Origin: Schmidtea nova
Taxonomy: Eukaryota
Length of the DNA: 64,000 nucleotides
Reading direction: 5' to 3'
Assembly: GCA_044892505.1 (NCBI GenBank)
Contig: CM097884.1
Span: 20,398,001 to 20,462,000, forward strand
Position 1 is the first letter of the stretch. Every line of letters begins with the position of its first letter. A model generated the notes under the pieces. It searched no databases. It saw only the letters and a list, made by a program, of their open reading frames with translations, and was not told the DNA's origin. The position numbers and the translations under genes were made by a program. Shown in pieces: positions 12,791-64,000 of the stretch.

Positions 12791-13031
12791 ACAGCAGCAA
12801 TTCGTGATAGTATTGTGTGTGCAAACTATGTAAAATAATCAGTAGGATATTCATTCCATATTTGTTGAACAGTTCAAAGTAAATGAATTTAATAATAATA
12901 TATGCATATAAACTATTAAATAATATAGGTATGCATAAACTTGTAAAATTTGAAGAAAAAAATAGAAATTTTGTAGATATCCAATATTAAACAGGTGAAG
13001 AGTTGATTTCTGTAATTTTAAAAAATGATAG

Positions 13032-13198
13032 AGTAATGATATTGCAATAAAGGCCAAAGAACAAATGTGAAGCAGTTCAGAGTATATTGCGTAATTCAAT
13101 CACTGTGTTAGTTATTGCGCAATATACATAACTATTTAAGAGTGATCACTCTGTGTTTTTAGTAAATAAATCTTTAGATGGAACCGATTGTTGTAACT
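13032..13198 (+). repeat. 5' LTR (AGT...ACT termini)
   Basis: Direct repeat of 17480-17646; contains AATAAA near 13165. Confidence 0.97.
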
Positions 13199-14380: not shown

Positions 14381-14398
14381 AGAAAGAAAATCGGAATG
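14332..14398 (+). promoter_or_regulatory. -1 programmed ribosomal frameshift signal (A AAA AAC plus pseudoknot)
   Basis: Slippery heptamer 14332-14338 in the gag frame; the pol frame opens right after TGA 14329-14331; 6-nt spacer; stem 14345-54/14367-76 and second stem 14359-65/14392-98. Confidence 0.8.
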
Positions 14399-17470: not shown

Positions 17471-17479
17471 GAAGGGGAG

Positions 17480-17646
17480 AGTAATGATATTGCAATAAAG
17501 GCCAAAGACCAAATGTGAAGCAGTTCAGAGTATATTGCGTAATTCAATCACTGTGTTAGTTATTGCGCAATATACATAACTATTTAAGAGTGATCACTCT
17601 GTGTTTTTAGTAAATAAATCTTTAGATGGAACCGATTGTTGTAACT
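17480..17646 (+). repeat. 3' LTR, preceded by polypurine tract AAGAAGGGGAG (17469-17479)
   Basis: Direct repeat of the 5' LTR, followed by the GATAG TSD. Confidence 0.97.
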
Positions 17647-17812
17647 GATAGAAAAGCTGAATGGGTCCAATATGATAAGGAAAAGTATGGAGTTCATACT
17701 CTTATTAGGAATATCCCGAGTATTATCTCGGAATATTGTCACTCCCATCTTATCATTTAAGCGGTGATTATACACAGTAATAATGATTTGTGCCTTTTTA
17801 ACATTAACTTAC

Positions 17813-18702: not shown

Positions 18703-18889
18703 CATTGTAAAAGGCAGTTATTTACCCTCTGACTCATCGCAGAACAAAGACATATGAGTCATCGATGACTCATAACAAAGAACACGAGCCACCCCTACCC
18801 CACCCTCTGGATGACTCATAAATGACGTAATTGATGACTCATTTCAAATTTTAAATTTTAATTTCCAAAGGTTAAATAAAGTCAAACCT

Positions 18890-19390
18890 TCAAATAAGGG
18901 TATCATTCGGAAGGTCTTTGAGAGTTCTATACAATGGTTATACCCTCAAAGGTTTATGGATGATCATGAACCTTCAAAGGGTCTAAGACCTTCAAATTTT
19001 TTCAAACCCTACAAGTTATATATCATTCGAAAGGTAATTGAGAGATAAGTATGATGGTTATACCTTCGAAGGTCTATGGTGGGTGCTCAACTTTCAAGGA
19101 GTCTGAAACCTTCAAAATCTTTCAAACGCTACAAGTTATATATCATTTAAAAGGTATTTGAGAGGTAAGTATGATAGTGATACCATCGAAGGTGTGTGGT
19201 TATCATATCCTCAAGAGGTGCAAGGTTTAAAAATTTTAAAAAACTATACAGGTATCAAACAAAATGTAATTGAAGGGTGAGCATGATGGTCATTTCCTTG
19301 AAGGTCAAAGGGTTCAAGGTTCAAAACTATATAATATAGGTATCAAACAAGGGGTAATTGAGAGTTGAGTATGATGGTCATACCCCTGTG
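18890..19390. repeat. Degenerate ~120-bp tandem array (4-5 copies)
   Basis: Recurring tatcattc.aaaggt..ttgagag...gtatgatggttatacc motif. Confidence 0.8.
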
Positions 19391-19677
19391 TGTGTTAGTC
19401 AGATAACAATACGCATTGCACGCGCGTGAAACGCGCATTGTAACACCCCGNNNNNNNNNNNNNNNNNNNNNNNNNNNNNNNNNNNNNNNNNNNNNNNNNN
19501 NNNNNNNNNNNNNNNNNNNNNNNNNNNNNNNNNNNNNNNNNNNNNNNNNNNNNNNNNNNNNNNNNNNNNNNNNNNNNNNNNNNNNNNNNNNNNNNNNNNN
19601 NNNNNNNNNNNNNNNNNNNATAAAAATTTAAACAATAAAAACTAAATTTCGTAATTGTAAAATTTATTAAATAACAT

Positions 19678-20094
19678 TTACGCAAATCTCGCATTGTCAA
19701 TTCTCCAAATTGGAGTTATAACATCTTTTGTGTCTATTTTATAACCCTGAATGATTATAGTAATGAACCAATGTTCTTGATCCTCGTATTCGATAGATTG
19801 GAAAGCATCATGGAAACAAGTTTTTCTGTTGTTGATATAAATAGTTTCTTTGCAACTTAAATTGTTATTGATTTTGAATAAAAATGTATTTAGAGCAACA
19901 AAATCTTCTTTATCAATAATTGCAGCTAAACTGTCATGCAATGACTTTGTTAATTTGACCGGATATGACAAACGAAATGGTATTTCTTGTACCAAGAAAT
20001 AAATTTTGTAATCGTAATACATTTGTACTGGTTTCACTTCATTATTGATTTTTCTTTCTTCACTAATGTCATTAGTTGATTTAGGTGCTGGCAT
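19678..20094 (-). CDS. 138-aa hypothetical protein inside the Polinton-type element
   Basis: Uninterrupted ATG-to-stop ORF starting just inside the right TIR; no family recognised. Confidence 0.55.
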   Translation of the reverse strand: MPAPKSTNDISEERKINNEVKPVQMYYDYKIYFLVQEIPFRLSYPVKLTKSLHDSLAAIIDKEDFVALNTFLFKINNNLSCKETIYINNRKTCFHDAFQSIEYEDQEHWFITIIIQGYKIDTKDVITPIWRIDNARFA

Positions 20095-22316
20095 TTTATA
20101 AATTGTGACAATATCTTAAAAATGTCTTTGTGTTCTATGTTATGAGTCATCGATGACTCATATGTCTTTGTTCTGCGATGAGTCAGAGGGCACATAACTA
20201 CCTACTCATTATTATTTTATTTGTTTGTTGTTTGTTGCATAATAATGAATTTGGATAAAGAATATGGTCTACTGTGTTCGACCAAAAGTGTCACTATCCT
20301 TTATAGCAAAATAAAAGATATTATTATATTATTATATATATTATATATTATTATATTATATTATTATTATATTATTATTATATTATTAAAATTATCCTTT
20401 ATATCCTTTATAATTAGTTCACATTGCTTACAACCTCCATATTTAGTTCTTCTATGAGCAGCATGAACTATATATTCTCAATTATATTTAAATCCGTTCT
20501 TTAACGCTGCTTTAAAAGCTCGTTTCTAAAAGAACTGATCGGAGACAGCTGGATGTATGCAAATGTGTGTTTTAAACGTGTGCTTGCTTGTGCGCAATTA
20601 CACTGAGTAAACTTATAAATTAATTATTAACTAAACAAAATAATAAATACTCAACTACTTTTATTAAATAAATGCAACAATAAAATACTTTTGGTATGTA
20701 TAACACATCGAAATCTGGGAAGTGCTGTAAATGTTCTAAGGAAATAAATATAATTTTAGAAATAAATTTTTATCTTTAATTAAGTTATTTTTGCATTTCC
20801 GGATGGGGTGCATGACCGATATATAGTGCACTCCAAAATCTTTTATAAACTAATAGGAAGGTTAATATAAGTTTTTAAACTAATTGTGATGTAGAAAAGA
20901 GATAACATAATAGTTAAATAAATGTCGCAATTTGGTTTTTTCAATTTTTTATTAATTCTGAAATTGTCCGTGAATTATGTTCAATGAATATTAAATAAAC
21001 TTATTGTGTTCCAGCCAACCCTATGATAGTGTTAGCCGAATTAAACAATAATTTTTAAGGGTTAAGTTTTTTAAGGGGATCATAGTTTTAGAAATTAATA
21101 ATAAAACTGAATTTGGTGGGCTTTGGTTAACGACTTTAAGAAAAACCAAGCACGCACAGATATTTTCAAATTGTCGTAAAAAGTTTTTTTGTAAAAAATA
21201 TCATATAAATTTTTTTTGGAATTTTTTGATTGATTGAGAATGAAGTAATAAAATTATAATCATAATGATTTTCATATTTTAGTAATTTTTTTTACATTTC
21301 ATTACATACTCAAATCTAAATGGCGAAAAAATGTATAGAAAAACCGTTATATATGGAAGAATATATTAATTTTTTAAATATTTTTTCCAGTTGTAATTCA
21401 AAGTCATTTTTAATAGGAAAGATAAAAATATTTTCTGCATTCTCATAAAAATATAACCTCTGACCGAAACAAATAAAAAAGAACCGATTGATACCATGAA
21501 AATTTTACAAACATCACAATATAAGTCATCATTACATCAAGTATCAATTAATACAAGAGCTAGCTTTTATGGAGGCCGCACAATAAACTCACGAAGGCCG
21601 CAGGTTCCCCACCTATGGCATATATGGTCTCCAAGTTACATCACACTTCTACCTTATCTGGAAATAATTCACCGTATTTGTAACTGCAGATAATGCGTTC
21701 TTTTGTTTTGAATGCACTATTCAACAGCGAAAGTCGTTTTTCAGATAATTTTGAAATAAAAATGTCATTTTAATTAAAATTAAATTATTTTCAAATTTTA
21801 AATAAAGTAATAATAACGATACATAAAATAATGTTGAAACAGGAATAGTTATTCCATGTGATTGATAATTAAAGTGGCAAAAATTAAATTTTCATTTAAC
21901 TTTTCAATTTTGCCTAGATAATAAATTTTTTTCAAGTTTGATATAGAAATATCGCGTACTTAACAATCAAAAACACAAAATAAATTTTAGCTGTAGTCAT
22001 ACAATTATGAAAATTATTGATATGAATCTTTGATTGATTTATGATACGTACTGATAAAAATAAAGTTTTATTGTGATATTCGATGCGATTTCAAATTGTA
22101 GCCGCATTTCTATATTATTTGGCTCTCACCATTTCAATTTAAAATTTAAAAATAGAAAGTATACAATTTTTAAATAAATTAACAAAATTTCTGAATTTAT
22201 TTTAATGATAAAAAATTTGAAATTAATCTAAATTTTGGCCGTGAAAAATATTTGAATATTTAATTAAGAAATATATGAATTAAAGAATTAGTTGTAAAAT
22301 AAATAGAAAAATTTAC

Positions 22317-22372: not shown

Positions 22373-22893
22373 CTAAAAGAAATAAGTTAATTTTTTAATT
22401 AAAATGTAAAACATTAATACTGTTTTTTAGAATTATTTTAGTTATTGAATTATAATAGCTTATAAATGTCGTTATATTTATATGATTAGGGTACATAGTT
22501 AAAAATAAAAATATTATCTTGTTTAATTAACTTTTACTTAAGGAATTACGCTTCTCTTCTCTCTCAAGTATCAATCTAATACTATTAAGATAATTTTCAA
22601 CTATTAAATGGTAATTAAATATAATCACGTTTCGAGAGAGAATAAAATAGTCTATTTTAGTCGCTTTAGATTTCTCCAAATAGATTAAAGAATATCTTTT
22701 TGTTTACTTATTGTTTTTTACATATTTAATTTTCTTTTCATTATTGATCGAAAATAAAAATGTTTCAACTTAATGATAAGTTATAAAAATAACTAAGATT
22801 TTCTTAAGGCTTTCATTGATTTATGCCACTTAAACAAAAAAAGAAACTTATTTTAGATATAAAAAAACCTCAACTCAGTAAGTTCAACATAAA

Positions 22894-22932
22894 CGCGATA
22901 TATTTCGATTGTATAACAATCTTCGTCAGGCA
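22894..22932 (-). ncRNA. Minimal type I hammerhead ribozyme of the Penelope-like element
   Basis: UGC-CUGACGA-A-GAUUG/CAAUC-GAAA-UAUA-UC-GCG, about 335 nt downstream of the PLE ORF on the same strand. Confidence 0.75.
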
Positions 22933-23266
22933 GCAATCAGGACAATCAATAATAAAATAGAAAATATGCTAAATTTAAACAAATTAATCAATAATAATCG
23001 ACTCCATACTATATCAAAATTTTAATTTAAAAATTTAATTTATTTTATTTTATTTTATTACACAAAAAATTTTTTAAATTTAATTAAAAACAAACATTTT
23101 ACATAGAACAACATACATATTATTTTAAAAAATAAAATAAAATTTAATAAAATTTTAACAATCAACATAAAATTTACAAATTTAAAAATTTAAAAAAATT
23201 AAAATTTTTACAAAAAAAACAAACATAATTATACCACAAACATAATTCGCAACATTCAACCTTCGG

Positions 23267-23990
23267 TTACTTAAACACATTCAAAATATCAGTGGAACGG
23301 GCAACTTGATCATTTATTTTTGGATTAATATATCTAATCAACAATGCATCACAAGTTCCTCGTTCCCAATAATTACTTAAACCCTTTGAAATAATTTTAA
23401 AATCAGAGATACCTATTTTTTTACTGACACATTTCCTAAAATGATCACTAATATTAGTCAATCCTTTTGGTCGGCAATGCTCAAGAACTCGGGTGCAGAG
23501 ATGACGGGCAGTCTCTCCAATGTATGTGGCATTACACCCATTACATGAAAATTGATACACGAGCTCAGAACACAAACCAATTGGCGTTGGACATTTACTA
23601 GTGAACATACTGCTAACTTTGCAAGACGTCGAAACAATCCTAAATTGATCCTTGTCTATATATTTTGAGAATCTTATGCTTAAATTCTCTGAAGCCCTCA
23701 GAATAAGGCAATACCAACACATATTTCGGCTCCGTGCGATTAGATCGATTTTTGTCACTTTCCGAAATTAACATCAGTACTTTCATCAATAGGTACCTCA
23801 GATTCAGACATACGCATACCAACATTATCAGATTTCAACATTAACTTATCCACGGTCACTTTTGTCATTTTCTCAAGAAAAGATTTAGAGTAACCGTTTT
23901 TAAGTAGCAACTCAACCAATACATCAATACTTTTTACTGAATTCACAAACGTGAATTCTGAGTTGGTGTTTTTCTATAATTAAATCATTG
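23267..23990 (-). mobile_element. 5'-truncated Penelope-like element (RT thumb/linker and GIY-YIG)
   Basis: LVYQFSCNGCNATYIGETARHLCTRVLEH; upstream LLKNGYS and VLPYSEG segments are frameshifted. Confidence 0.9.
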
Positions 23991-35354: not shown

Positions 35355-38097
35355 CTGTATTATTGTAAAATTTAATACAATAACAATACAATTCAATATA
35401 ATATAATAAAAAAACAATGCANNNNNNNNNNNNNNNNNNNNNNNNNNNNNNNNNNNNNNNNNNNNNNNNNNNNNNNNNNNNNNNNNNNNNNNNNNNNNNN
35501 NNNNNNNNNNNNNNNNNNNNNNNNNNNNNNNNNNNNNNNNNNNNNNNNNNNNNNNNNNNNNNNNNNNNNNNNNNNNNNNNNNNNNNNNNNNNNNNNNNNN
35601 NNNNNNNNNNNNNNNNNNNNNNNNNNNNNNNNNNNNNNNNNNNNNNNNNNNNNNNNNNNNNNNNNNNNNNNNNNNNNNNNNNNNNNNNNNNNNNNNNNNN
35701 NNNNNNNNNNNNNNNNNNNNNNNNNNNNNNNNNNNNNNNNNNNNNNNNNNNNNNNNNNNNNNNNNNNNNNNNNNNNNNNNNNNNNNNNNNNNNNNNNNNN
35801 NNNNNNNNNNNNNNNNNNNNNNNNNNNNNNNNNNNNNNNNNNNNNNNNNNNNNNNNNNNNNNNNNNNNNNNNNNNNATGTAATGTAACATAATATAATAT
35901 AACATAATATAATATAATATATCATAATATAATGTAAAGTGATATATTTTAATTTTTATATAATATAATATAATATAATACAGTTTTGCAATTGCAATTC
36001 AACATTTTGGAAATCATACTCGACAATAATGTTGAATTTGTATTAGAAAACCTGTATTATAGTGAAGTTAGAAATGGTAAGCCTTTCTCAGCGGTGTTAC
36101 TTTCTATGAAATATTTCGATCTTAAAAAGATTCTGATCACTCCAATGCGAAATTCTTTCCATTTAACTTATCAATTTTTCTTGTGTATTTTTCTTTCTGA
36201 AATCAGACTTCAGCTAAACTTAAGTGCATGATTCAAAGTAATCTCGTCAGTAGGGGAAAGTGAGGAGTTAGGCACAAGCCATTCATCACAGAAACCATGA
36301 ACCCCTCAAAAAAGAAGTTATACAGTAATGTGTATTCATTACGTTGTACTATATGTTTTATGTAATTGTTACATAATACTTTATACATTATGGAAACGTT
36401 ATGTTAGAAACGTTTGTTATGCGTTATACTTTATTTAACAAACAATACGTTTCATGTTACGTAATTTATTACATAACATGTTAAATACCATATACTCGAT
36501 TATATAATCCTTTATTCGTTATGCAATGGCTTAAAGATTACGTGAGTGATTATATAATACTAAAAAATTATTATTACCCTTATTTATTTTTATTTTTATT
36601 TTCAAAATTTTATCAAAAATTATTAAAATTATTAATTTTTTTCAAAATTTTTTTAAAATCTTAAAAATTAAGTAATATTTTCAACAAATACATGAATATG
36701 TTAAAGTCACAAACAAATTAGATGTATAAACGGTCGACTCCCACAAAAAATACTCGGAATTAAATATCTATTGTACCGATCTACTGAGAATTGAATGGCG
36801 AACAAAAAGGGTAAAAACGTAAAAACATGAAAAAATGGTCTCATCCAACGAAATTTTACACGTAAATAGGGAATTTCCAAAATTTTTTAAATGGTCAGAA
36901 TCAAATAATTTTTATACCAATCTACCGAGAATTGAATTGCGAACAAAAAAGGGTAAAAACATAAAAACGAAAAATTGAACTCATCCGACCAAATTTATTT
37001 ATCAAATCTTGTCTTTTCATTATAATTGTGTTGGTTAATTAAAATTTTAATAATAAGTATTTCATGTGATAAATTTATTACTAATTACTTAAGATCAATT
37101 AGTTTTTTATTAAAAAATAATTAATTTTTATTATCATAATTATTCTAAATTGATTTTGTTTTAATAATTGAAATTAAAATTAATTTTAAAATAATAATAA
37201 TAATTCACTGAAAAAAACTTTTTAAAGGGAAAATAAATAAATATTTTGGTTAATTTTTTATTTCCAATTATATTCAATTATATTCAGTAACGAGTATCAA
37301 AACCTTAGTAGCAGAACCTTGGTAGAAGAACCTCTTTTGTGATGGTTTTTATCCGCAAAAGCTTTATACTCATCCGATATTTTATGGATAAATAAGTGTG
37401 TGGGGGAGATTTATAAATCTCTTTTAAAAGAAACGATATACTTGGCCCCGTGAATTACACCATTTTGAATATGGATGTTAAACGGAATAGATCTCAATTT
37501 TGTTTTATTGAATGATTTAAAGACGATTGATCATGAACTAATGATAGATAAATATCTAAAGGGATAAAATCAAACTGATGGTAAAGTGTTTTAAATGATA
37601 AAACTTATAAAGAAAAAGTTAATTAGGATGGGTATTTCTTAAGGGTAAGATACTGAGTATTATTAAAATGAAATTATAAATGTAAAATATATTGAAAGGT
37701 AAGAATTCAGACGAGGAATTTTATTTAAAGAGTTATTTCTTATGGAAGATACATTCAGATTGGGGAATTATAAATGGGAAGTCAAGTAAAATGATGTTAA
37801 TCCTATAATTGAAAATTTTATTCAGAGTGATGATTTATTGGGGAAATTAACAATGAAAAATGAATTTATTGAAAATATTAATTTAATGGTTTTAATAAAT
37901 TACATTTAAATTGCTGATTTTTATGGAATGTGTTTATTTTCATCGAATTTATAAAAAATTACTTGTAGTCGATGTTCATTTTTTATCTAAAATAATGTAT
38001 CCAATTTAGATGTCAATAGTAACCAGTCAGCCAATCAAATTCAAGTATTTATCAAAAAAAATATTATAAATACCACATCTTTGAAAATATAAATCAA

Positions 38098-39846: not shown

Positions 39847-41536
39847 AACAATGTTATTTTGATGACTAATTGAAAATTAGTGATTGTATAGAACTATTTT
39901 TTAGATTTTGATGGTAAGTTTATGTGTGTATAGTGAATTTATAGTTTATTGGTATCAGGTTAATGTGAAGAACTTGTTATTTAATGTGTATAAGTAGTTG
40001 GTTAGCGAGTACTTGATTTGTTTGTTAATTGATTTAGAGCTATTAGTTTGACAGTTCAATACCAAAATATAACCGTCATTACGCCTACAGAAATTTATTC
40101 CCGTGTGTATCAATATATTTTCAAGCGTTTAAGGTGTTATGCTTGGAATTTAAACTTTGGATTATAAAAATTATGTGGAAAATTTAATTAAAGAATTAAA
40201 TTTTGTTTGTATTAATTGTTAGTCCTTGATTGTAAAAATTTGAAAATGTGTTAAAGTAATAGTATTTTTAATTTTATATTAATTATTTTTTAGTTTATTT
40301 GTTCGAAGTAGTTCTCAAGAAGATCGAAGAACTATATCCAAAGGTTAAAAATAATCTCGATTATTGCGCCCCTGAGTTGTCGGTACACAAAATATACCAT
40401 TATATTGAGATCAATATTGAGGAGTTGCTCAAAATGCATTATGATATGGTGATTGGGGCCACATTTCCTAACATGATCACTAGTATTAGTCAGCCTATTT
40501 TAGCAGGCAATGCTCAAGAACTCGGGTGCAAAGATGACGGGCAGTCTCTCCTATGTATGTGGCATTGCACTCATTACATGAGAATAAATGCACGAGTTCA
40601 GAACACAAACCAAATGGCGTTGGACATTTATTAGTGAACATACTGCTAACTTTGCAAGACGTGAAAACAATCCTAGTTGGCGTTTATCTATTAATAATAA
40701 TAATTATTATTCATTCAATTTGTCAACCTTAACTAATTATTTATTTTCCTTTAGAATTTAAAACAATTCACATAATAATATTTTCAAAATATATAAGCAC
40801 ACAAGATTATCTTTTTCCAATAAGTGATATTTGATTAAAATTTTTCGCTAAAAAGTACAATTTTGAAAGAATTTTTCCAATAAGAGTCCATATTTTACTT
40901 TATTCAACTGACTGAATTTTCTAAACAATGTTATTTTGATGACTAATTGAAAATTAGTGATTGTATAGAACTATTTTTTAGTTTTTGATGGTAAGTTTAT
41001 GTGTGTATAGTGAATTTATAGTTTATTGGTATCAGGTTAATGTGAAGAACTTGTTATTTAATGTGTATAAGTAGTTGGTTAGCGAGTACTTGATTTGTTT
41101 GTTAATTGATTTAGAGCTATTAGTTTGACAGTTCAATACCAAAATATAACCGTCATTACGCCTACAGAAATTTATTCCCGTGTGTATCAATATAATTTCA
41201 AGCGTTTAAGGTGTTATGCTTGGAATTTAAACTTTGGATTATAAAAATTATGTGGAAAATTTAATTAAAGAATTAAATTTTGTTTGTATTAATTGTTAGT
41301 CCTTGATTGTAAAAATTTGAAAATGTGTTAAAGTAATAGTATTTTTAATTTTATATTAATTATTTTTTAGTTTATTTGTTCGAAGTAGTTCTCAAGAAGA
41401 TCGAAGAACTATATCCAAAGGTTAAAAATAATCTCGATTATTGCGCCCCTGAGTTGTCGGTACACAAAATATACCATTATATTGAGATCAATATTGAGGA
41501 GTTGCTCAAAATGCATTATGATATGGTGATTGGGGC
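39847..41536 (+). repeat. A-B-A duplication: 613-bp direct repeats (39847-40459, 40924-41536) flanking a 471-bp copy of 30519-30989
   Basis: About 2 differences seen between the A copies; B appears identical to its source; junction microhomologies GC and AACAA. Confidence 0.9.
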
Positions 41537-41639
41537 TGACATCAAGTGTGTTGAAAATTGCGTTGTATGTAAAGATTTAATGCGAGTTTCATGTACCAAT
41601 GAATGCGCTTGTTGCCATGACTTTAAACGACAACAATAA
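41376..41639 (+). CDS. Small ORF or exon with a Cys-rich C-terminus inside the Polinton-type element
   Basis: CVENCVVC...CTNECACCH; no ATG start (follows a TTTTAG acceptor-like site); a truncated duplicate lies at 40299-40459. Confidence 0.4.
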   Translation: MFEVVLKKIEELYPKVKNNLDYCAPELSVHKIYHYIEINIEELLKMHYDMVIGADIKCVENCVVCKDLMRVSCTNECACCHDFKRQQ

Positions 41640-47438: not shown

Positions 47439-48785
47439 CTGTAAAGATTTAATTTAAATTTTAATGTGTTTTTTGAAAATTATTTAAAAATTTATAAAGT
47501 GTATTAATATGGTTTTTGGTTTAGTTAAAAAAACGTTTTTTTATAAATACGACAATCTGAATTTTAGTTGACACAAGTGACTTTTTGAATGAATTTGTCA
47601 ACAGAACGAAGTGCATTTTTGACACAAAGATTTGCTTTTTCAGAGTAATCTGTTTATTTACGGTAGGAAAATTTGTTGATCGAAATTTTTTAGATCGCTA
47701 TTTGAGCTAGCGAAAAATATCACAAAATATTCTAACATAATTTCAGTTGAAATAAAATGAAATAATTTAATTGGTGAATAATAGCAATATTCACTCGACA
47801 CACAATTCAAATTTAATTAATGCATTTCTAATACTGGAAACTCGTAATAAAAATTAATAAACACACGTCATGTCGTGAATATGTTACACATTACAGGAAA
47901 TAAAAATTTTAATATTTTGTTGAATATTTTAAAGTTTTTATTATGACTATTAACTTACATATTTAATTAGCAAATTTTTTATGGTAAGACTTAGATATTT
48001 TGAGACACCTAAAATTATAATCATAATTTTAGAAGATCATTTAAAAAATCATTATAAATTAATAATGTCTAACTTAATAATTAATAAAAATAAATAAATG
48101 ATTAACTTAATGCATTTAAAAGGGCTAAACTTACTTATTATGATACACAAAAAGTATTTAATTTATAAAAGGTACTTTACTTCTAAAATGTTTTTAGTTA
48201 CCCTCTAATAAATAAGTCTTACCTTTTTTATTCATCCACTATCACTCTTATCAAAAATATTTTATCTTTATTTTCTTTGTTTACGATTAAACGACATATA
48301 AAGATTCATTATCATTTCTCCAATGACAATAAATCCACAATTGCTAGTCACATAGATAAAGGTTATTCCGAAAATGTGTGTTTGGATTTAATTTTAAATA
48401 TTGATTTATCGTTATTGGACAAAAGGAATATTGAAAACTATTTAAACAAAAAACATAATACATATGCATTAGGATTTAATAACTGGACCAATATCACATC
48501 TCCATAAAAATATTGTTTAATTTTTCAATTAAATAANNNNNNNNNNNNNNNNNNNNNNNNNNNNNNNNNNNNNNNNNNNNNNNNNNNNNNNNNNNNNNNN
48601 NNNNNNNNNNNNNNNNNNNNNNNNNNNNNNNNNNNNNNNNNNNNNNNNNNNNNNNNNNNNNNNNNNNNNNNNNNNNNNNNNNNNNNNNNNNNNNNNNNNN
48701 NNNNNNNNNNNNNNNNNNNNNNNNNNNNNNNNNNNNNNNNNCACTAATATAATTAACAACAAACGCCAATCCAAATATATATTTT

Positions 48786-48826
48786 GCACAATATATTTCG
48801 AGAACTTAATTCTCTTCATCAGGTGC
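48786..48826 (-). ncRNA. Minimal type I hammerhead ribozyme
   Basis: GCAC-CUGAUGA-A-GAGAA/UUCUC-GAAA-UAUA-UU-GUGC. Confidence 0.85.
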
Positions 48827-49259
48827 TACCCAATCTTACATCGAAATATAAATCACATAAATCGATTTATTCGAACAAATTAGTATTAATTTTTAAAATA
48901 AAATATATATTTTAAATTCTATTATAGTCAAAAAATTTATATCGATTAAAAATTTTTAAATTTAAATAAATTAATCTTAAAAATATAATATTCTTTTATT
49001 TTTATACAAATAAATATTTTTTTAAGAATAGATTATAAATATTTTCATATTTATAAACAACAGAATGATTGAAAACGAAATCCATAATCCCCAATTGAAA
49101 ATGCTCTAGTACTCGAGTTTTAGAGCATTTTCAATTGGAGATTATGGATTTCGTTTTCAATCATTCTGTTGTTTATAAATATGAAAATATTTATAATATA
49201 TTCTTAAAAAAAATATTTATTTGTATAAAAATAAAAGAATATTATATTTTTAAGATTAA

Positions 49260-49501
49260 CCCTTAATGACCTGAATTAATTTTTTTTTAATTTTAAAATT
49301 TTTTTTTGGATAAATCTATTATTTTATTAATATTTAAGATTATTTTCTATATTATTTATCAAAATTTAATCTATGTTACGAGAAAATCCGTGTTGCCATA
49401 TGGCAACGCTAAGCAGTCATACTGCTATAAGGGTGTTAATTTTTATCATGGTTAGAGCTATTGCGCGGCGTTGCCATATGGCAACGCTAGGTTAATATGG
49501 G
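49260..49501. mobile_element. piggyBac-type MITE with two GTTGCCATATGGCAAC palindromes
   Basis: TTAA duplication; CCC...GGG ends; absent from the left arm of the fold-back. Confidence 0.8.
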
Positions 49502-49606
49502 TTAATTTATTTAAATTTAAAAATATATATTTTATTTTAAAAATTAATACTAATTTGTTCGAATAAATCGATTTATGTGATTTATATTTCGATGTAAGAT
49601 TTGGTA

Positions 49607-49647
49607 GCACCTGATGAAGAGAATTAAGTTCTCGAAATATATTGTGC
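49607..49647 (+). ncRNA. Minimal type I hammerhead ribozyme (mirror copy)
   Basis: Identical to the reverse complement of 48786-48826. Confidence 0.85.
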
Positions 49648-52600
49648 AAAATATATATTTNNNNNNNNNNNNNNNNNNNNNNNNNNNNNNNNNNNNNNNN
49701 NNNNNNNNNNNNNNNNNNNNNNNNNNNNNNNNNNNNNNNNNNNNNNNNNNNNNNNNNNNNNNNNNNNNNNNNNNNNNNNNNNNNNNNNNNNNNNNNNNNN
49801 NNNNNNNNNNNNNNNNNNNNNNNNNNNNNNNNNNNNNNNNNNNNNNNNNNNNNNNNNNNNNNAGTATATATAAGAAATAACTGAAGATCCCAATAGGATC
49901 TCTTTTAAAACTTGTAACGAGATAGCTGGGGGTATTTGCATATAAATACGAATTCCTCTCTCTCTATGTGTGTGTTTGTATTACAATGTTTAAATGAAAA
50001 ATAATTTTATTAAATAAAAACAAATCAAAATACTTTTTTATGGACGTGATTAAGAAGTTTATTGACATCAGATTATTCATTATATTATTTCATTTTTATT
50101 TTCTGTATTTAATATTTTTCAATGACTTTATTTTATTTTGATGTCTAAAGTAAAAGTTTTACGATAAATATTTTGTCTTTTTCCTTTTCCTTTGACGGGG
50201 ACAAATAAACCAAAAAATTAAAGCCTCAAAATTAACGAACATACAATAATGATATAATTAAGTGGCCGATATTCCTAATGTTTAGAATTTTACTCTCTTA
50301 CCTTTATTAACATATTGATCCTTATCATCATTTTTAGATTGAATTTCAGATTTTTTATTAAACCTCGAGATTCTTTAAAAAAAACTCTTTCAAACTCTTG
50401 TATTTTCCAGGTTCAGTTTCGATGCCTTACTAATTCCCCCTTGAATAATATTGCTTCCTTTTAGATAATGACAATTTGTTTCAGAATTTACTCAATACAT
50501 CTATGTCCTAATAACAGTCTTTTTTGCAACTTTTGTTATTGTTGTTGTTATTTTGCACTTGTATATTCATATTTTTAGATTATTAAGTGTTGTAAACATA
50601 TAGTTGAATGTATATTGACAACGCAAATGAAACATTTTAACCAATATCATACATTTTGCTATTTTTGATAGTATTTAATGATTAATAACTGTATAATTCA
50701 TGCCTATTTCCCTGAAATCAGTCTAGTGACGTGGATCTGAATAAATAAAAGTCATCCGAAATGAATTTTTAAGAGGGTTAACAAATTTTGGCTTTGACCC
50801 ATTTAAAAATAAGAAATATAAATATCTAAGTGACAAATTGCAAATTAAATAGAGTTCTTTTATTTTCATTTTGTTTTTGATTTAAAAAAACCAAAATCGA
50901 AAAAAATGAAAGGTGACAAAAATTAGAGATTTTAATGATAATTCAAATCAAACAGGGAAGTACTGAGACAAATTAAACATTCTGGGTATTTCTAAATTAG
51001 AAATTATATATTGTTATAATCGACAGTGCATTGGAAATAAACTATTCAAAAATAATGTCATTTTTTAACAGACAGGATAGAATGGTTAATTTTTTTTGTC
51101 ATATTTTATAGACACAGGATAGGAAAGGGTTAACTACTACAAATGCCAAAAGAAAACATTATTAAAAAAATTTAATAATGTTAAAAAATATTAAAAAATA
51201 TTATAAAAAATATAAAAATTTAATTATTGACTAAGATTATTTACAATCTATTTTAATAAATAATTTTCGATTTATTTAAAATTAAATTTTATTATCTATA
51301 GAAATTTAAATAAAGAAACAAAATCTGAAAATTTTTGCGCAAATTTTGAATAAATTTAAAAATTAATGTCTATTAAATCAATGTCATCACAAATGAAATG
51401 AATTGCGTGCTCACAATTAGACAAGGTTACCATTCTGACTAGATTGGTCAACATTTTATACTAGATTCTAAATAAACAAAATATAGTTTTAAATAATCAA
51501 TACCAAACAATCAACTAATTTAGGTTATTTTGAAAAAAAGACATTTTAAATGAAATTTTGACGATCAATGTTTGAAAATTTGCTGTAAAATTAAAAACTA
51601 ATCTTTTCTTGTCAAATTACATTTATTAAAAAAGGGTGTTCATTTTGCTATAAGGCGATATAAAGTAATATATCACAAACAATACATAAAACATAACAAT
51701 TATTCTAATAATATATATATATATATATATGTGTGTGTGTTTTCAAAAAATCCAATATTTGTTATTTCGATTTTTACATGTTAGGGAATGTTTTGAATTT
51801 ATTTTTTAATAGTAAAGTGATAAAATCAAAATTTCTTATTAAAAATGTAAATAATTGTCGTCGGGAGCTAACCTCACAGCAAGCTAATAATTGAAAAATA
51901 ATTGAATATTGTTCAAAATTGTATTGAATATGACAAAGTATGTTATAGAATTTGGATTTGGATTTGAAATTGGATTGAAATATTTGATGGCATAGAAATT
52001 TGAATTGTTGGACAAATTGGCCTGGTTGAAAGTCGTTTTTACTGTTGCTGCTGGTATTAATAAAGAAAGCCTCGTATTTTAATATATTTATTTAAATACA
52101 AATTTGAAAAACTCATTCTTTTTCTTTTTGTTATTTACACAAAATTAAAATTTTTAATTTAAATCTGAGGCACTACAATAATGAAGGATTCTGGACTAAA
52201 AAAATATGTAGTTATTTGTATGATTGCTAAATTAAAATGGTTCAAATCATATTTTCATAAATGTTAATAAAAATAAAAATAATAATTATCATTATATTTT
52301 GTTATCATTTTATAAAATAACATCATACTTCTATGCCCAATATTTTAAATAATTTTTAATAGTTTTATCATTAACGAAAATTTGTCACGCATTTTTGAGT
52401 AATAAACAACTTGCTTTCAATTTATACGATAGCCAATAAGAACGCACACAGATTAATGTAGAATTTATTTGCTGACTATTTTAAGACGCTGATGTTGATA
52501 AAGATGACATCATTAAAATAACAAAAAAATACAAAAACTAAAACTCGAATTTGACAAAAAAAGAAAACACCATTATTATTTTACATAATTTTTGTTTTAT

Positions 52601-56130: not shown

Positions 56131-59100
56131 ATAAAACTTTTCGTGATTTTATAAATTTAGAACGAACTTAAAACACTTCAGCACAACTAGCACGTTCGTT
56201 ACGATTTATTTTATGAAACATATCTGAACGCAAAATTGACAAAAAATTAAACAAAAACGGAAAATATCAGCTCGCAAGACTTAAAAACTGTCAATTACTG
56301 GTGTCAGAGTTCATAATCCCATGGAGTCCCATTTGGGAATAACTGAAATATGTAATCGGACTCCGCGGAACCCCATTTGTGTTCAAGTGTTATCAGCTAT
56401 TACAGTGGCACATTATACACAGCATGGTCGGTCTATGACGAAAAATTGAAACAGAAAATATATTAAAATGCCAAACGATGCGTGACAATATCCAAAGAAA
56501 ATATAGATTTTTTTGATCTATAAAAAATGTTAAAATTCCTATTCAATTGTAAAAAAAAATAATGATGACCTGAAATTATAAATTGACATGAAAATTGTAA
56601 TCCAAGTGTGGCACTGACAAAAAATAACCATTAGAAATGCAATATAAAAATTAAAGTTATTGAAATTTGTTTCACCGCACATCAACTTGTGATTTGAAAT
56701 AAATTTGGGAAATTTTTAATGTCTCTAATCTGACAGGAGAATCCAAAGTGAACTTTATTTTTAAGGATTTAGTTTGTTAAATATAAGCATATATTTACGA
56801 TAGGAAGTAATGCTATGCATTCTGAAAAGGAAAATAAGAATTTATTTAGCACTAAACATACCAGAACGATTAAAAGACCGCTTTTTAGACTTTATTTAAA
56901 AATTTTAAATTCAATGTTTTCGCTTTTACTCAACTTTTTAATGACAACTTTTTTATGATAATATATATGTATTTAATTTTTCAACACCTATCTCTCTTTT
57001 TCTTTCGTTTATGTTGATAATCTTCTGCACTCTACGTTATCTACCGTGAGCAGTCTTTTATTATATAAAAAATATCCGTAGGTTTAGTATTCATTTTACA
57101 GCACATTTCTGAAGAATATTGTTGAATATCTTTCTTTTCTATTGAGGCTGTTAATAATTTCCTTTCTCTTGAAATATTTTAAAATATATTTTTATTAGTT
57201 ATTTTTTAATTGTTATTTAATTCCTGATAGTAAATTTCTAATACATTTCTGATACAGATTTCGAGCATTAAACAAATAAGATGATTAGAGCTAAAATTAC
57301 TGGTTTTATTCTATATTTTATACATTGTCCTGGCAAGCGTAATTATTTTCAAATTTTTTGATTTTATTGGTTAAATCAGTGATTTTCAACCTTTTATGTT
57401 ACTTAAATCCATTTTAAATCAATAAACGTTTTTCGCACCCTCTCAAAAAAAATAAAAAACAATAAATCCCAATTTTATTTCGATATTAATTAAAAATGTT
57501 TACTGAAACAGTCCAGTCTGAAGAAAAAGGAGACCCTTATTCATGTTTTTGTAATACGTAGCTCTATGACCAATAAGAAGACAATTCTTTAACATAAAAA
57601 CTTAAATTTTAACTATTATATAGTATTAAAGGATGAAAAGAATGACTGATTTCAAATGAAAATTTTTTTTATTTTGTAATAATATGGTGTATATTTTTAT
57701 AATAGAATATTGTTTTTATACTTGTAAAAATAATTTATTTGTATATTTATTCAAATGTAAGTGCTATAACAAGCGACTATTTAATTTTTAATCTAGAAGT
57801 AGCACAACAATGGCATTTCTGTAATATTTCCCAACAGAAGTAATTTAACCATTAATAATTGCACAGCTGATTGGCAAAATTGAAATTGTTTCCCAAAATT
57901 ATGTTTTATTGGAAATTGGCTAAATAGGAAATTTATCGACAAAACTAATTTATTTATGGTGACTATAATAATGCATTGTGAAAGGGGCAATTTTACAATT
58001 TCTAACGTAAAATTTCAAGCACAAAATTTTCAAAATTAATTAAAAAATATCGGTAGTTCATTTATTTTGTTTAACTACTTTTTTCAGTGAAATGTTAATT
58101 AAATCTATCTTTATATTTAACAATATTTCATATAATATTTATTAATATAATATTTATATTTATATTTAATTTCTAGTTTCTATTATTNNNNNNNNNNNNN
58201 NNNNNNNNNNNNNNNNNNNNNNNNNNNNNNNNNNNNNNNNNNNNNNNNNNNNNNNNNNNNNNNNNNNNNNNNNNNNNNNNNNNNNNNNNNNNNNNNNNNN
58301 NNNNNNNNNNNNNNNNNNNNNNNNNNNNNNNNNNNNNNNNNNNNNNNNNNNNNNNNNNTTTAACCATAGAGTTTTACATATGTTTGATATGCTCGGCATA
58401 TTCAAGTCTTTTACGTACAATATGTACTTCATATTTTTCCAAAATTATTTGGAATTATCTCCGGAGTCAGCATATGATAAAAATAAATTTGGATCGTAAA
58501 CGTGTAAAAAAACAATTACAAAAAGCATAAAATTGTAATATATTGCAAAAAGATAATAACAAAAGATTCCTATTAAAAATCAGAAACCGTACTCACCACT
58601 GTCACGAGGAATGGGAGTTACTGATACACTTAAAACTTTTGTTTTATTATTCGAAGCAAGTTTCTGAGTAACCCAAATAGGTATTTTCCGGTTATGTCGA
58701 CTTCATCAAAAAATGAACAATTTCAATTTTAAAAATATTTTAAACCAATTTAGGCAATAANNNNNNNNNNNNNNNNNNNNNNNNNNNNNNNNNNNNNNNN
58801 NNNNNNNNNNNNNNNNNNNNNNNNNNNNNNNNNNNNNNNNNNNNNNNNNNNNNNNNNNNNNNNNNNNNNNNNNNNNNNNNNNNNNNNNNNNNNNNNNNNN
58901 NNNNNNNNNNNNNNNNNNNNNNNTAACTTACAATTTCTGTTTGTTTTCTTGTCAAACTTTGGATCAATTTTTAACCCACTTCCCGATATCCAATCGATCT
59001 GAAAATTTGCGAGCAGACTCGTGGTGGCCCACAAATTATTCCATTGAAAAATTGAAAAATTTTGAAACAATGTGATTTTTCAATTTACTGTTGCCAAGAA

Positions 59101-61510
59101 ACTACCAAACAATGAAACAACAATAAAATTAACCGAGAACATGAGAAAAAGAAAGAGTTACATTAAAAACTTGTTNNNNNNNNNNNNNNNNNNNNNNNNN
59201 NNNNNNNNNNNNNNNNNNNNNNNNNNNNNNNNNNNNNNNNNNNNNNNNNNNNNNNNNNNNNNNNNNNNNNNNNNNNNNNNNNNNNNNNNNNNNNNNNNNN
59301 NNNNNNAACATTTATTAAATTAAATTAAATAAAATACTACAAGAATAGTATTTTATTAGTGTCTGATTAAATTTGATTAATTTTGGAATTTNNNNNNNNN
59401 NNNNNNNNNNNNNNNNNNNNNNNNNNNNNNNNNNNNNNNNNNNNNNNNNNNNNNNNNNNNNNNNNNNNNNNNNNNNNNNNNNNNNNNNNNNNNNNNNNNN
59501 NNNNNNNNNNNNNNNNNNNNNNTTGCCTAAATTGGATTAAAAAGATTTTTAAAATTGAAATTGATCATTTTTTGATGAAGTCGGGATAACTGGAAAGTAC
59601 CCCAAATATTTCTACAAATGTATTTGTTTGTTATTGACTAAAATTCATTACAAATGTATATCTCCAACATACCAGTAGCATAGATAGTCACAGTATGAAT
59701 AGATAAGATCAATGCTCACAATTCGCCAAAATAGCAAAAATAAATTTTCAAAATGTTTTATATCAATAGAAATTTACCAGCAAAATGAAGCGTATAATAA
59801 ATTATTTGAAAATATAAAAGGAAAATATCAAAAAAATTACATTATTTAAAATAGTTTATTTCAACCATTTCCGTTGGCGGTACTTTATTAGTACCGTCAA
59901 ATTATATTATTTTCTGCTGGTCAAAAAACACTTCAGAGAGATTATATCGAAGATTCATGTTAAATAAATAAAAATTATCTTTAATTTTTAAGTCGACCAA
60001 TAAGCTATGAACTCTTCCTCACTCAAAAAATAAATAAGAAATAACAGAAAATCTTCAAATATTTTTGGCTTCGTACCCAAATCTTTGATGGTAGATTTTC
60101 CACGCATTTTCAAATAAATTTTTAAATAAATATACATGTATTTTTAAATTAGTTATATTTATAAAAATATAAAAATAAAATTTAATTAGAAAATGTTATA
60201 AAAATTTGCTCTAAGTCAAAAATACTTTTAAATCTGAATGATCATTTATTAGTATAAATTATTTTTACAAATTAATCGTGCATATCACTTTGAAGACCAT
60301 TGCTCTACGGTATATATTTAGCCTATATTTCCTACTTATATGTTCTTATTATTTTAACCAAATTGCTCTCACAATTAAAGTTTATTATTAATGGGTAGGG
60401 TTAAAATTTTTATTGTTTGTAGTATTATGTTCATTTTGATAATAATATTGTATTTATTGTTGAGTAAAATTCTGACAATTAATGCAAATAAAATGTATTG
60501 TTGATATTGCATAATAGCAATGCATTCAATATTAATATGAATAATAAATATCCATTTTTGAATTCGATCAAATTTTACGAAAAAAATAGCTTTTTCTTTG
60601 AATAGCAATTATTTACACCTTTCTTGCACTTTATTTTTTTTCAATTTAAACTCAAAATATCACAAGATAAAATTATAATTATAATCATTCTTATCATTTT
60701 GGTCGCTGTTACAAAAAATTTTAAATCAATAAATAGTGTGAAATGTATAATTTTGTTTCTTGAATGCGATTACTTTAATATTTTTAATAAATTTTTGAGT
60801 TTAAATAAATAAATTTGAAAAAAATTGTATAAAATAAATTATTTTTACATAAATTTAAATTATTTAAGTTAAAAAGCACTTCAAATGCTTAAACAACNNN
60901 NNNNNNNNNNNNNNNNNNNNNNNNNNNNNNNNNNNNNNNNNNNNNNNNNNNNNNNNNNNNNNNNNNNNNNNNNNNNNNNNNNNNNNNNNNNNNNNNNNNN
61001 NNNNNNNNNNNNNNNNNNNNNNNNNNNNNNNNNNNNNNNNNNNNNNNNNNNNNNNNNNNNNNNNNNNNNNNNNNNNNNNNNNNNNNNNNNNNNNNNNNNN
61101 NNNNNNNNNNNNNNNNNNNNNNNNNNNNNNNNNNNNNNNNNNNNNNNNNNNNNNNNNNNNNNNNNNNNNNNNNNNNNNNNNNNNNNNNNNNNNNNNNNNN
61201 NNNNNNNNNNNNNNNNNNNNNNNNNNNNNNNNNNNNNNNNNNNNNNNNNNNNNNNNNNNNNNNNNNNNNNNNNNNNNNNNNNNNNNNNNNNNNNNNNNNN
61301 NNNNNNNNNNNNNNNNNNNNNNNNNNNNNNNNNNNNNNNNNNNNNNNNNNNNNNNNNNNNNNNNNNNNNNNNNNNNNNNNNNNNNNNNNNNNNNNNNNNN
61401 NNNNNNNNNNNNNNNNNNNNNNNNNNNNNNNNNNNNNNNNNNNNNNNNNNNNNNNNNNNNNNNNNNNNNNNNNNNNNNNNNNNNNNNNNNNNNNNNNNNN
61501 NNNNNNNNNN

Positions 61511-61763
61511 TGGTTACTGCTGCTATAAACAAGGAAAGAGTCACTGACGGACCAGCGATATTAGATGAAACCTGCCCCACTACCACATAAATACCAGCTC
61601 CTAAAATGCTCCCAATTCCGAGATTTGTCAAATCAAAGGTAGTTAAACATTTTGATAAATCACTAGTAGAAGATTCTCTGTTTAAATTTGTGATATGTTT
61701 TCTTCGAAATAACGTATATCGTAGATTACCAATTGAACTTGAACAGTCTTTCCAACAAGTCAT
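61511..61763 (-). CDS. SLC7A14: SLC7A14/CAT-like exon 1 (3' end lost in an N gap)
   Basis: MTCWK..LFRRK..DLSKCLTTFDLTNLGIGSILGAGIYVVVGQVSSNIAGPSVTLSLFIAAV. Confidence 0.95.
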
Positions 61764-63144
61764 AATCCGATATATCTAAATTTAGAAAATAATCATTTTC
61801 AAAAAAAAGTCATAAATTTATGAAATAATTATTGATGAAATAATTATTGATGAAATAATTATACATTGAAACTAATTATTTAATTTGAAAATCATAGTAT
61901 TACTTGAATAATAGTATTACTTGAATAATTATATTGAACTATATGATTCTTAAAAAATTCAAGTAAAAAAATTAGTAATTAATAATTTGCAAGACAAATT
62001 TTGTATTTGTCAATCATTCAACTGATGTAGTAAAACATTCAAGGCTATTTTTAAGAAGGAAGTCACAAATTTTAAACTAATCTTTCGATTAGTTTATTTA
62101 GGAGAAAAGGTATTTATAACTTTAAAATGTTTTTAAAATTTTGAAAAATAATATTAAAGTGTCATATAAGTCAATGATAATAAATTACAATGATAATAAA
62201 TTACATTATAAACTATTTATTAAAATATTTTAGTTAATTGTTCTCATTCAAATGTATCTGATTTAACTGATGACTAAATGGGAAATAAAAAGCAACTAAA
62301 ATTTAATGGCTGATTTTGACCTGATCGTGATGTGGAGTAAAGGAATAAACTTTGTAGATAACTTCGGTCTGTTCATTTTCGGCATTTGCTAAAGTGATGG
62401 ATTCTTCATTGCCAACTCTTTTGCCACGTAGACTTGGTGCAAAACATATTTTTGCAGTTTTACAGCTCAAATTTCATTACGCACAATTAATTCGCCAGCT
62501 CATTCTTTGCTTCATTACTCATTTCAATCAACTGTGTAACGCTTTTAAATGATGTTTAATTCGAAAATCCGATATAAAGTTTCTTTTTAGTTCGTTCTTC
62601 CTGTAAATATTTCAATTTTTGTGCACTTAAACATCAAAATTCTTATTGAGATTATAAACATCGGTTACTTTGATTGAAAATAATATTCGTAAAATGATCA
62701 TGTCGGTAATATTGCGACTCTTCGTTGTTCTTATTGTTTGGCTGGTACATACGTAAAATAAATATAAAAACGAACAGATAATTAAAAACGAAAAAATAAA
62801 TAAAGGAGAATTAAAACAAAGGAATGGTAAACAAAAAAAACAAATAACTCTTAATAATACACAATTAAAACAAAAATAAAGTGAGAAAATTGATTATGAA
62901 AAGTACGAAAGTAATCGGAATTTGAAAACAATAACCAAAATTAGAAAAATTAAATAAAAAATTAATAAGTAGGTAGATGTGTGGAGCCGGGAACAAAGAC
63001 ATTATGACTCATGCGTGGGCGGGAAAAAAAGAACAAAGACCCCCCCCGGGGGGGGGGGGTAGAAAAAAATTTTTTTTTGATGAGTCATAATTTTTTTTTT
63101 TGATGAGTCATCGATGAGTCATAATTTTTTTTTTTCAAAAATTT

Positions 63145-63314
63145 TTTCGTGCCAAATTTTTTTTTCAAAAATTTTTTCGCGCCAAATTTTTTTTTCAAAA
63201 ATTTTTTTCGCGCCAAATTTTTTTTTCAAAATTTTTTTTCGCGCCAAATTTTTTTTTTTCAAAAATTTTTTTCGCGCCAAATTTTTTTTTTTCAAAAATT
63301 TTTTTCGCGCCAAA
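63145..63314. repeat. ~31-bp tandem array, each unit centred on TTTCGCGCCAAA (5 perfect, 1 variant)
   Basis: Direct reading; explains the low-complexity ORFs at 63114-63371. Confidence 0.95.
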
Positions 63315-63612
63315 TTTTTTTTTTTAGACAAATTATTTTTATTTTTTAGACAAATTATTTTTATTTTTTAACATAAATTTTTTAACAAAAATTTTTAACA
63401 TAAATTTTTTATTTCAAGTCAAATTTTTTAACACCAACTTATTTTTTTTTTTTATTTTCGAAAAATTTTTTATAGGACAAAATTAGAGTCATCAAAAAAT
63501 ATTTGCAACAGGTGTGCAAACTAAACAAAGACATTTTTGTATGTGTGCATGTTTAATTAATTATTATTTGTCAAGTATGAAGCTTTTGCACTTCAAAACC
63601 ATCACAGAAGAG

Positions 63613-63704
63613 GTTCTGCTTCCAGGGTTCTGATCGCAATGTTCTGCTTCCAGGGTTCTGATCGCAATGTTCTGCTTCCAGGGTTCTGATACTAAATGTT
63701 CTGC
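63613..63704. repeat. 28-bp tandem repeat x3 (GTTCTGCTTCCAGGGTTCTGATCGCAAT)
   Basis: Direct reading. Confidence 0.95.
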
Positions 63705-63734
63705 TACTAATTATAATTATTATTATTATCTTTC

Positions 63735-63935
63735 AAACTAAACAAAGACTTTGCAACATGCGTGCAAGTTAACAAAGACATTGCAACACACGTGCGAGTT
63801 AACAAAGACATTGCAACACACGTGCAAGGACTTTGCAACACGCGTGCAACATGAACAAACACATTGCAATACACATGCAAACTAAACAAAGACACATGCG
63901 TGCAACACACGTGCAACATAAACAAAGACATTAAA
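63735..63935. repeat. Degenerate ~30-bp array (AACAAAGACATTGCAACACACGTGC)
   Basis: Direct reading. Confidence 0.85.
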
Positions 63936-64000
63936 AAGCCAAAATTTATTTATAAATATATCGTTGTGTACGTGTACAAAATTTAAGTTCAAAATTATTT

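Follow-up and report, generated by a model that had tools for sequence, protein, structure and literature searches.

Tandem predicted double E2F sites near the terminus of a highly abundant Polinton-type element

A spaced array of E2F-type sites lies just inside one end of a very high-copy Polinton-type element that enters the window (the whole 64,000-nucleotide stretch of DNA analyzed here), and it probably belongs to this mobile element, not to the neighboring host gene. The array itself is real, and we infer its function from its letters: it may be part of a promoter or enhancer owned by the element, at which E2F/DP would act with neighboring factors, linking element activity to cycling cells. 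A probability of about 0.5 is assigned to this reading. The features on which it rests are collected in Table 1.

Table 1. Positions of the features discussed, numbered from the first letter of the window
Feature	Position	Strand	Basis or remark
Probable start codon, amino-acid permease	61761..61763	-	ORF; acceptor-like site 12 nt upstream
Candidate 6-bp target-site copy	62962..62967	+	Flank sequence; opposite end beyond window
End of very high-copy Polinton-type element	62968..64000	+	Runs past window; depth step, loose contig ends
Terminal motif AGTAGGTAG	62968..62976	+	Common to right end of sibling
Terminal motif cluster	62992..63121	+	Two AACAAAG, four TGASTCA, one GGGCGG, C8G12 run
TTTGAA hexamer (CHR/LIN54-like), one per array unit	63134..63296	-	Six of six units
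Six-unit minisatellite (the array)	63145..63314	.	Five double E2F sites and one mutated; T9-11 and T6-7 runs between
Predicted double E2F sites, exact TTTCGCGCCAAA	starts 63175, 63206, 63237, 63270, 63303		Variant TTTCGTGCCAAA at 63145
28-bp tandem repeat	63612..63705	+	Inside element; related solo fragment 37293-37370 (minus)
30-bp tandem repeat region	63741..63929	+	Five AACAAAG, all three CACGTG of the window
Sibling non-autonomous element, 1.5 kb	18709..20206	.	In transporter-gene intron; TIRs ~80 bp
Intact 138-aa ORF of sibling	19678..20094	-	Starts ~33 bp inside right TIR; AATAAA just past stop

Re-reading of the letters bore out the preliminary description of five exact sites and one variant in this interval; of its spacing of 31-33 bp, the values 31 and 33 stand and one distance is shorter, successive starts being 30, 31, 31, 33, and 33 bp apart. 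TRF delimits a tandem repeat at 63123-63325 with a period of 33, 6.4 copies, and 95% matches. At no more than one mismatch, TTTCGCGCCAAA has seven matches in the window, six of them within the array; the shuffled window gave a mean of 0.27 matches and at most 2. The E2F consensus TTSSCGC (PMC5716687, in part) is found on both strands in five of six units and on neither strand in the first, and the 12-mer is indeed the DHFR E2F site as had been stated, appearing as an EMSA probe in PMC3205837 and as a Transfac entry in PMC2784457 (in the accessible parts of each). The A/T tracts said to separate the units are present between them, and A/T runs of at least 10 number six in the element's 1033 bp versus two in the remaining ~60 kb of the window, where TTTSSCGC also occurs twice. 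Strict helical phasing at the noted spacing of about three turns is not supported, as T-run lengths differ within and between copies and any phasing is loose. Two further candidates were rejected, namely a hairpin role for the array (its single strand folds no better than shuffles, z -0.99) and a gene in the 85-aa frame that crosses it, which is low-complexity.

Since the array copies are tandem and come from one seed (effective n = 1), the fair statistic is that of the seed: a random 31-bp unit would hold the double site TTTSGCGCSAAA with a chance of ~4e-6, before correction for the choice among many motifs. This low value argues against a neutral passenger, that is, a chance E2F-like 12-mer multiplied by slippage and spread with the element, of no consequence even if bound; so do tandem pairs of the motif at no fewer than 120 metagenome loci in at least 53 sequence clusters, recovered in a scan made without a control motif. 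In favor of such a passenger, the element end is rich in short tandem repeats (units of 22, 14, 28, and 30 bp), the spacing varies, as do T-run lengths from copy to copy, one array copy has lost its site, and the related sibling element has no E2F site. On balance, a neutral origin is considered somewhat unlikely.

Variation among copies of the element bears on the same question. There are 69 variant places across the mapped contigs, 40 of which were listed in detail; among these 40, nine substitutions fall in the array in other copies, all in spacers and none in a CG core, and they consist of A/T boundary shifts plus one C>T in a TTCAAA. All eight G>A places tallied in run X1 lie outside the array, and among the 29 other variant places up to six C/G changes in X1 are possible, if the tallies share thresholds. 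Indels in the T-runs are common among copies. The preliminary description had proposed conservation of the CG core among copies as a check; with no core change among 40 of 69 variant places, the outcome leans weakly in its favor, weakly because mutations fall most readily in spacers, no methylation pressure acts on CpG, and only contigs of at least 80% likeness were mapped. Intact CG cores would be expected also without selection, since homopolymer spacers mutate fastest and CpG is undepleted in the window (observed/expected 1.0).

Assignment of the array to a mobile element relies on contigs from four of the five listed sequencing runs (X1, X2, and X4 from organism A; X5, a soil metagenome), which were mapped to 61520-64000 at a likeness of at least 80%. 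Summed contig depth, which is inflated by overlapping contigs and is not a copy number, ranges over 12-62 in most bins of the flank and reaches 3e5-1e6 beginning with the bin that contains 62968, with a terminus-to-flank ratio of 22,600-23,800 in all three organism-A runs. Just before 62968, contigs diverge into unrelated flanks, 185 of them in X1 and 94 in X2 (agreement 0.4); one sharp end is therefore shared by insertions that number, at the least, many dozens to hundreds. Dispersed copies with a sharp end and unrelated flanks, a feature by which Polinton/Maverick elements are recognized, are thus present at this element. The contigs of the soil metagenome X5 include element pieces on 63096-64000, some of them free of differences over 79-106 letters, and the single-copy flank was absent. 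In the flank, ~15 clustered differences at 62788-62879 separate the window, matched by X2, from X1 and X4; this segment is a low-copy repeat that received the element insertion.

Polintons are defined by AG- or AGT-repeat ends, TIRs, and 6-bp duplications (PMC8097293 and PMC3014272, both in part). The terminal motif AGTAGGTAG occurs only twice in the window, at 62968 (+) and 20206 (-), and its start matches (AGT)2 at five of six positions, reading AGTAGG where vertebrate Polinton/Maverick ends read (AG)3 or (AGT)2. Further apparent likenesses are an AG-starting short-repeat end and, in the sibling, inverted ends, a near-perfect candidate 6-bp duplication, and a predicted virus-type replication accessory gene. 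In contrast, the sibling's TIR of ~80 bp is far from the 584 bp of the Anolis Polinton, vertebrate Mavericks are mostly low-copy while the copy number here is very high, and no core gene is seen (comparisons from the accessible parts of PMC8097293, PMC3014272, and PMC6431247). The visible 1033 bp of the element hold no credible gene, only low-complexity or repeat-derived frames, with no polymerase, integrase, ATPase, protease, or capsid ORF among them, and the element end has no Rfam match. The ends thus appear to be of Polinton type, and the element may be a Polinton; the label "Polinton-type" was chosen over Polinton because the sibling's left end is degenerate, its duplication is mismatched, and no core gene is visible. 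The array had been placed inside a Polinton-type TIR; its position in the end of a high-copy element with Polinton-type ends is supported, and a place within the TIR itself is less secure: the array lies 178-347 bp inward of the terminus and may be subterminal, since the TIR of the sibling spans only ~80 bp.

Relative to single-copy depth, the array bins reach 38,000-71,000x in X1 and ~900-1,500x in X2 and X4, with the terminus at ~23,000x in all three. Array-bearing copies may therefore be a small fraction of the total, the depth being compatible with library bias as well as with a real difference. In X4, 61 contigs have loose ends at 63012, and joints that skip parts of the array occur; there are therefore subfamilies with other interiors. 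No contig spans the array, and its normalized depth differs ~50-fold between runs, as would be seen if the array were an assembly or sequencing artefact of homopolymer-rich DNA. However, array-like contigs are found in all four mapped runs, including the independent soil metagenome at low depth, and X4 contigs of 92 and 84 letters cross two to three units. The lengths of the runs may be imprecise, but the units exist; an artefact is exceedingly improbable.

Several other repeats mark the element end. The C8G12 run at 63040-63059, 72 bp inside the terminus, could form a GC hairpin and varies among copies (G>C at 63048-63049). The minus-strand solo fragment related to the 28-bp repeat is 85% identical over 59 bp to 63574-63632 and carries neither terminus nor array.

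Elsewhere in the window, the sibling element has TIRs that are identical at 72 of 80 positions and unrelated beyond, and its flanks, CATTGT and CATTAT, match at five of six positions as a candidate six-base target duplication. Its right end reads AGTAGGTAG and its left end is degenerate. As its 1.5 kb are too short for core genes and part of it is masked, it is regarded only as a non-autonomous derivative. AP-1 and TCF/Sox motifs are present in it and an E2F site is absent; the core AACAAAGAC-TGASTCA occurs in the 62968 end and in both sibling ends, with the central base of the palindrome switched in the sibling. The sibling also contains a 120-bp tandem repeat at 18901-19200 and nine TTTGAA hexamers, eight of them on one strand.

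For the 138-aa protein encoded by the sibling, a search of 1.84 billion representatives gave 31 homologues at E ≤0.001; the protein falls in no Pfam or PHROG family, and no Atlas match, no named or longer homologue, and no relative in viral contigs was found for it. Its structure model (pLDDT 92) matched best, among 48,161 chains, ASFV CP312R, a DUF2815 phage protein, Enc34 SSB, and T7 gp2.5 (Z of 7.8, 7.7, 6.8, and 6.5, respectively; rmsd 2.6-4.2 over 98-124 aligned residues), and it gave 36 matches to viral models at E ≤0.001, mostly from giant viruses; a Foldseek search of the PDB gave no match at that threshold. The ORF is therefore predicted to encode an ssDNA-binding OB fold of T7-gp2.5/giant-virus type, with the proviso that Z values below 8 may reflect a common fold alone. 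The predicted fold likens the protein to the T7 gp2.5, Enc34, and Nucleocytoviricota-type SSBs (PDB 1je5, 5odk, 4klk, 8hw5), from which it differs in sharing only 5-17% identity and in belonging to no Pfam or PHROG family. SSBs of T7 type have been described for Nucleocytoviricota and mriyaviruses (PMC10962738, in part), and a Polinton SSB is not mentioned in the passages searched of PMC11071308. A virus-type replication helper would fit a self-synthesizing element, and the sibling is possibly a helper-supplying mini-element whose protein belongs to a nameless family of at least 31 clusters. The position of the ORF start, ~33 bp inside the TIR, suggests that the element ends may act as promoters.

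The visible 1 kb of the 62968 element contains four TGASTCA, eight AACAAAG, and all three CACGTG motifs of the window, which we take to be AP-1-type, TCF/Sox-type, and E-box sites, respectively. In the scheme favored here, an element-owned promoter or enhancer, slippage would have amplified the block a short distance inward of the terminus of an abundant Polinton-type element, host E2F/DP would bind the double sites held nucleosome-poor by A/T tracts, and bZIP, HMG-box, and bHLH factors would act together at the adjoining motifs. Lifting of Rb-type repression at G1/S would then render the element end active, timing element-gene transcription or element copying to cycling cells with a high dNTP supply, comparable to the adenovirus E2 promoter; factor binding, promoter activity, and cell-cycle timing are the steps that we infer. 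This scheme is favored because five of six units have the DHFR-type double site and the AP-1-type, AACAAAG, and CACGTG motifs share the same 1 kb, because the AP-1 palindrome beside AACAAAGAC is kept in the diverged sibling family, and because the nine listed substitutions in the array spare the CG cores and the sibling gene starts so close to its terminus. It is weakened because the sibling family is without an E2F site, such that these sites are not needed by all related elements, and because the visible part of the element holds no gene and the array-carrying share of copies may be small. In addition, the silencing of planarian Polintons is reported to be lifted upon differentiation and not in stem cells (PMC8532177, in part), which, if the host is a planarian, would count against a stem-cell version of the scheme.

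The same sites could be bound and yet repressive, with E2F/DP and Rb or DREAM/MuvB silencing the element outside S phase or in the soma, and thousands of copies may in addition act as an E2F sink. A TTTGAA hexamer accompanies the sites in all six units; the one change listed within this hexamer turns that of the third unit into TTTAAA, which is also a CHR motif (PMC5716687, in part), and DREAM peaks in C. elegans also lie on H3K9me2-marked repeats (PMC8552245, in part). In canonical E2F/CLE or CDE/CHR arrangements, the CHR hexamer stands 4 nt downstream of the E2F/CDE site (PMC5716687, in part), whereas here a spacer of 9-10 nt, or of 5-6 nt when measured to the reverse-oriented 8-mer, separates the two in all six units, and the canonical DREAM composite was rejected as a description of the array. 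Moreover, TTTGAA is common (2.6 per kb of window), and a hexamer within 20 nt on that side accompanies only 8 of 401 metagenome sites among the matches listed. Repression by way of the array is distinctly improbable.

Arrays of this kind are not limited to the window. The metagenome scan for tandem TTTCSCGCCAAA pairs, already cited, used a motif without a control motif, and with that limit, such arrays recur in eukaryotic repeats; their sites, among the matches listed, comprise 313 of CCG and 88 of GCG form. The largest cluster (44 of the 120 loci listed) is plant-like in look. Neither AACAAAGAC nor AGTAGGTAG was found near the array at any of the 120 metagenome loci among the matches listed, flanks being examined for 80, and the terminus and interior of the element have no blastn or tblastn link to these loci. 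Among the matches listed, 16 ORFs lie near metagenome arrays, seven with Pfam matches, and a recognizable transposon (copia) was present at only one of the loci checked for ORFs. Viral contigs gave no match to two array patterns and four to the terminus pattern, none of which was terminus-like on inspection. Three observations concern single loci: a seven-locus family (L016, L040, L070, L110, L113, L119, and L124) carries two E2F sites with a TATA-like box after them; L040 and L070 have a long ORF of unclear family 1.2-1.4 kb from the array; and a copia-type pol frame at L084:3-3668 (-) includes a Dam-like adenine methyltransferase domain (E 1.4e-8).

A close functional analogy is offered by the MITEs of Brassicaceae, which amplify E2F sites that E2F is reported to bind in vivo and for which a benefit to transposition has been proposed (PMC5950925 and PMC7329337, both in part, citing Henaff 2014). 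In both cases, one transposon family multiplies an E2F motif to high copy number. Unlike the MITEs, the present array lies in an animal genome, at Polinton-type ends, with the GCG form of the site set in long A/T tracts and adjoining AP-1, TCF/Sox, and E-box motifs, and the terminus and interior of its element have no blastn likeness to the 120 listed metagenome loci, which include plant-like arrays. The element may work like the Brassicaceae E2F-MITEs, and nothing suggests membership among them. In adenovirus, sites for host factors are present in the ITRs, and E2F sites in the E2 promoter (PMC2794291, in part), so that there, too, a protein-primed linear replicon has host-factor sites at its terminus and replication genes driven through E2F sites; the adenoviral E2F sites, however, are in an internal promoter and not in a six-fold terminal tandem array, and no gene is visible downstream here. 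The mammalian DHFR promoter has the identical 12-mer, and TTTGAA near each site recalls CDE/CHR elements, from both of which the present case differs as a tandem array in a mobile element in which the 4-nt spacing is absent.

The neighboring host gene encodes an amino-acid permease; it is spliced and lies on the minus strand of this AT-rich eukaryotic DNA. All four downstream exon frames match AA_permease families and the first coding frame has no Pfam match; we take the permease to be of the cationic transporter type. The distance from the array start to the ATG at 61763 is 1382 bp, in agreement with the ~1.4 kb given in the preliminary description, and this proximity could be read as host co-option, in which the insertion places the transporter under E2F control. 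Also compatible with co-option, flank-to-element contigs in all three organism-A runs reach 21-22 letters into the element, less than the 31 letters of the bridging rule, such that presence of the insertion in all three samples is only suggested. The insertion is nevertheless one of at least hundreds. The acceptor-like site before the ATG resembles the remaining acceptors of the gene, and the 1203 nt that separate the transporter ATG from the element contain 21 ATGs. The transcription start is therefore probably elsewhere, which suggests that the ATG exon is preceded by an intron or a trans-spliced leader; this evidence is suggestive, as a crude scan gave six acceptor-like sites in the same 1203 nt. 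In Arabidopsis, transposed E2F sites are rarely near promoters and RBR1 is said not to regulate the neighbors, the latter statement resting on a paper listed as retracted (PMC7329337, in part), and an upstream motif proved a poor predictor of a gene's regulation (PMC10558129, in part). Given the great number of insertions and the acceptor-like site before the ATG, the influence on the neighboring transporter proposed earlier is unsupported, and co-option is very unlikely.

The rest of the window is itself repeat-bearing. An LTR retrotransposon at 13021-17647 has 179-bp LTRs that are 97% identical and frames for gag, protease, RT, RNase H, and integrase. Long inverted arms mark two further elements of foldback or MITE-like kind, one at 48773-49660, with a central palindrome of 98-bp arms at 49017-49212, and the other at 58680-59601. 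Near-identical direct repeats of at least 300 bp are present at 30519-30818/40458-40757 and at 39847-41223, next to which a cysteine-rich, unexplained frame occupies 41349-41639.

Neither E2F arrays nor a T7-type SSB in Polintons is reported in the literature searched, which consisted mostly of non-subscription main texts. Transposon-amplified E2F sites are already known from plant MITEs, and here they would be found in the end of a Polinton-type animal element. Should the array turn out to be neutral, it would show only that matching a consensus close to a gene, when the genome is rich in repeats, does not amount to host regulation. A broader proposal is rather doubtful as a whole: a Polinton family would have spread a host-cell-cycle switch (tandem E2F/DP sites, possibly with DREAM, in nucleosome-poor DNA) in hundreds to thousands of copies, with copying tied in time to cells that cycle or to germ/stem cells, an E2F sink across the genome, and siblings supplying a viral-type ssDNA-binding protein in trans. 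The switching-on of Polintons and their route into the germ line are poorly known, and perfect E2F sites repeated at the terminus of so abundant a family offer a directly testable answer. Many such arrays could titrate E2F/Rb, and the plant MITE case of amplified E2F sites would extend to virus-like animal elements.
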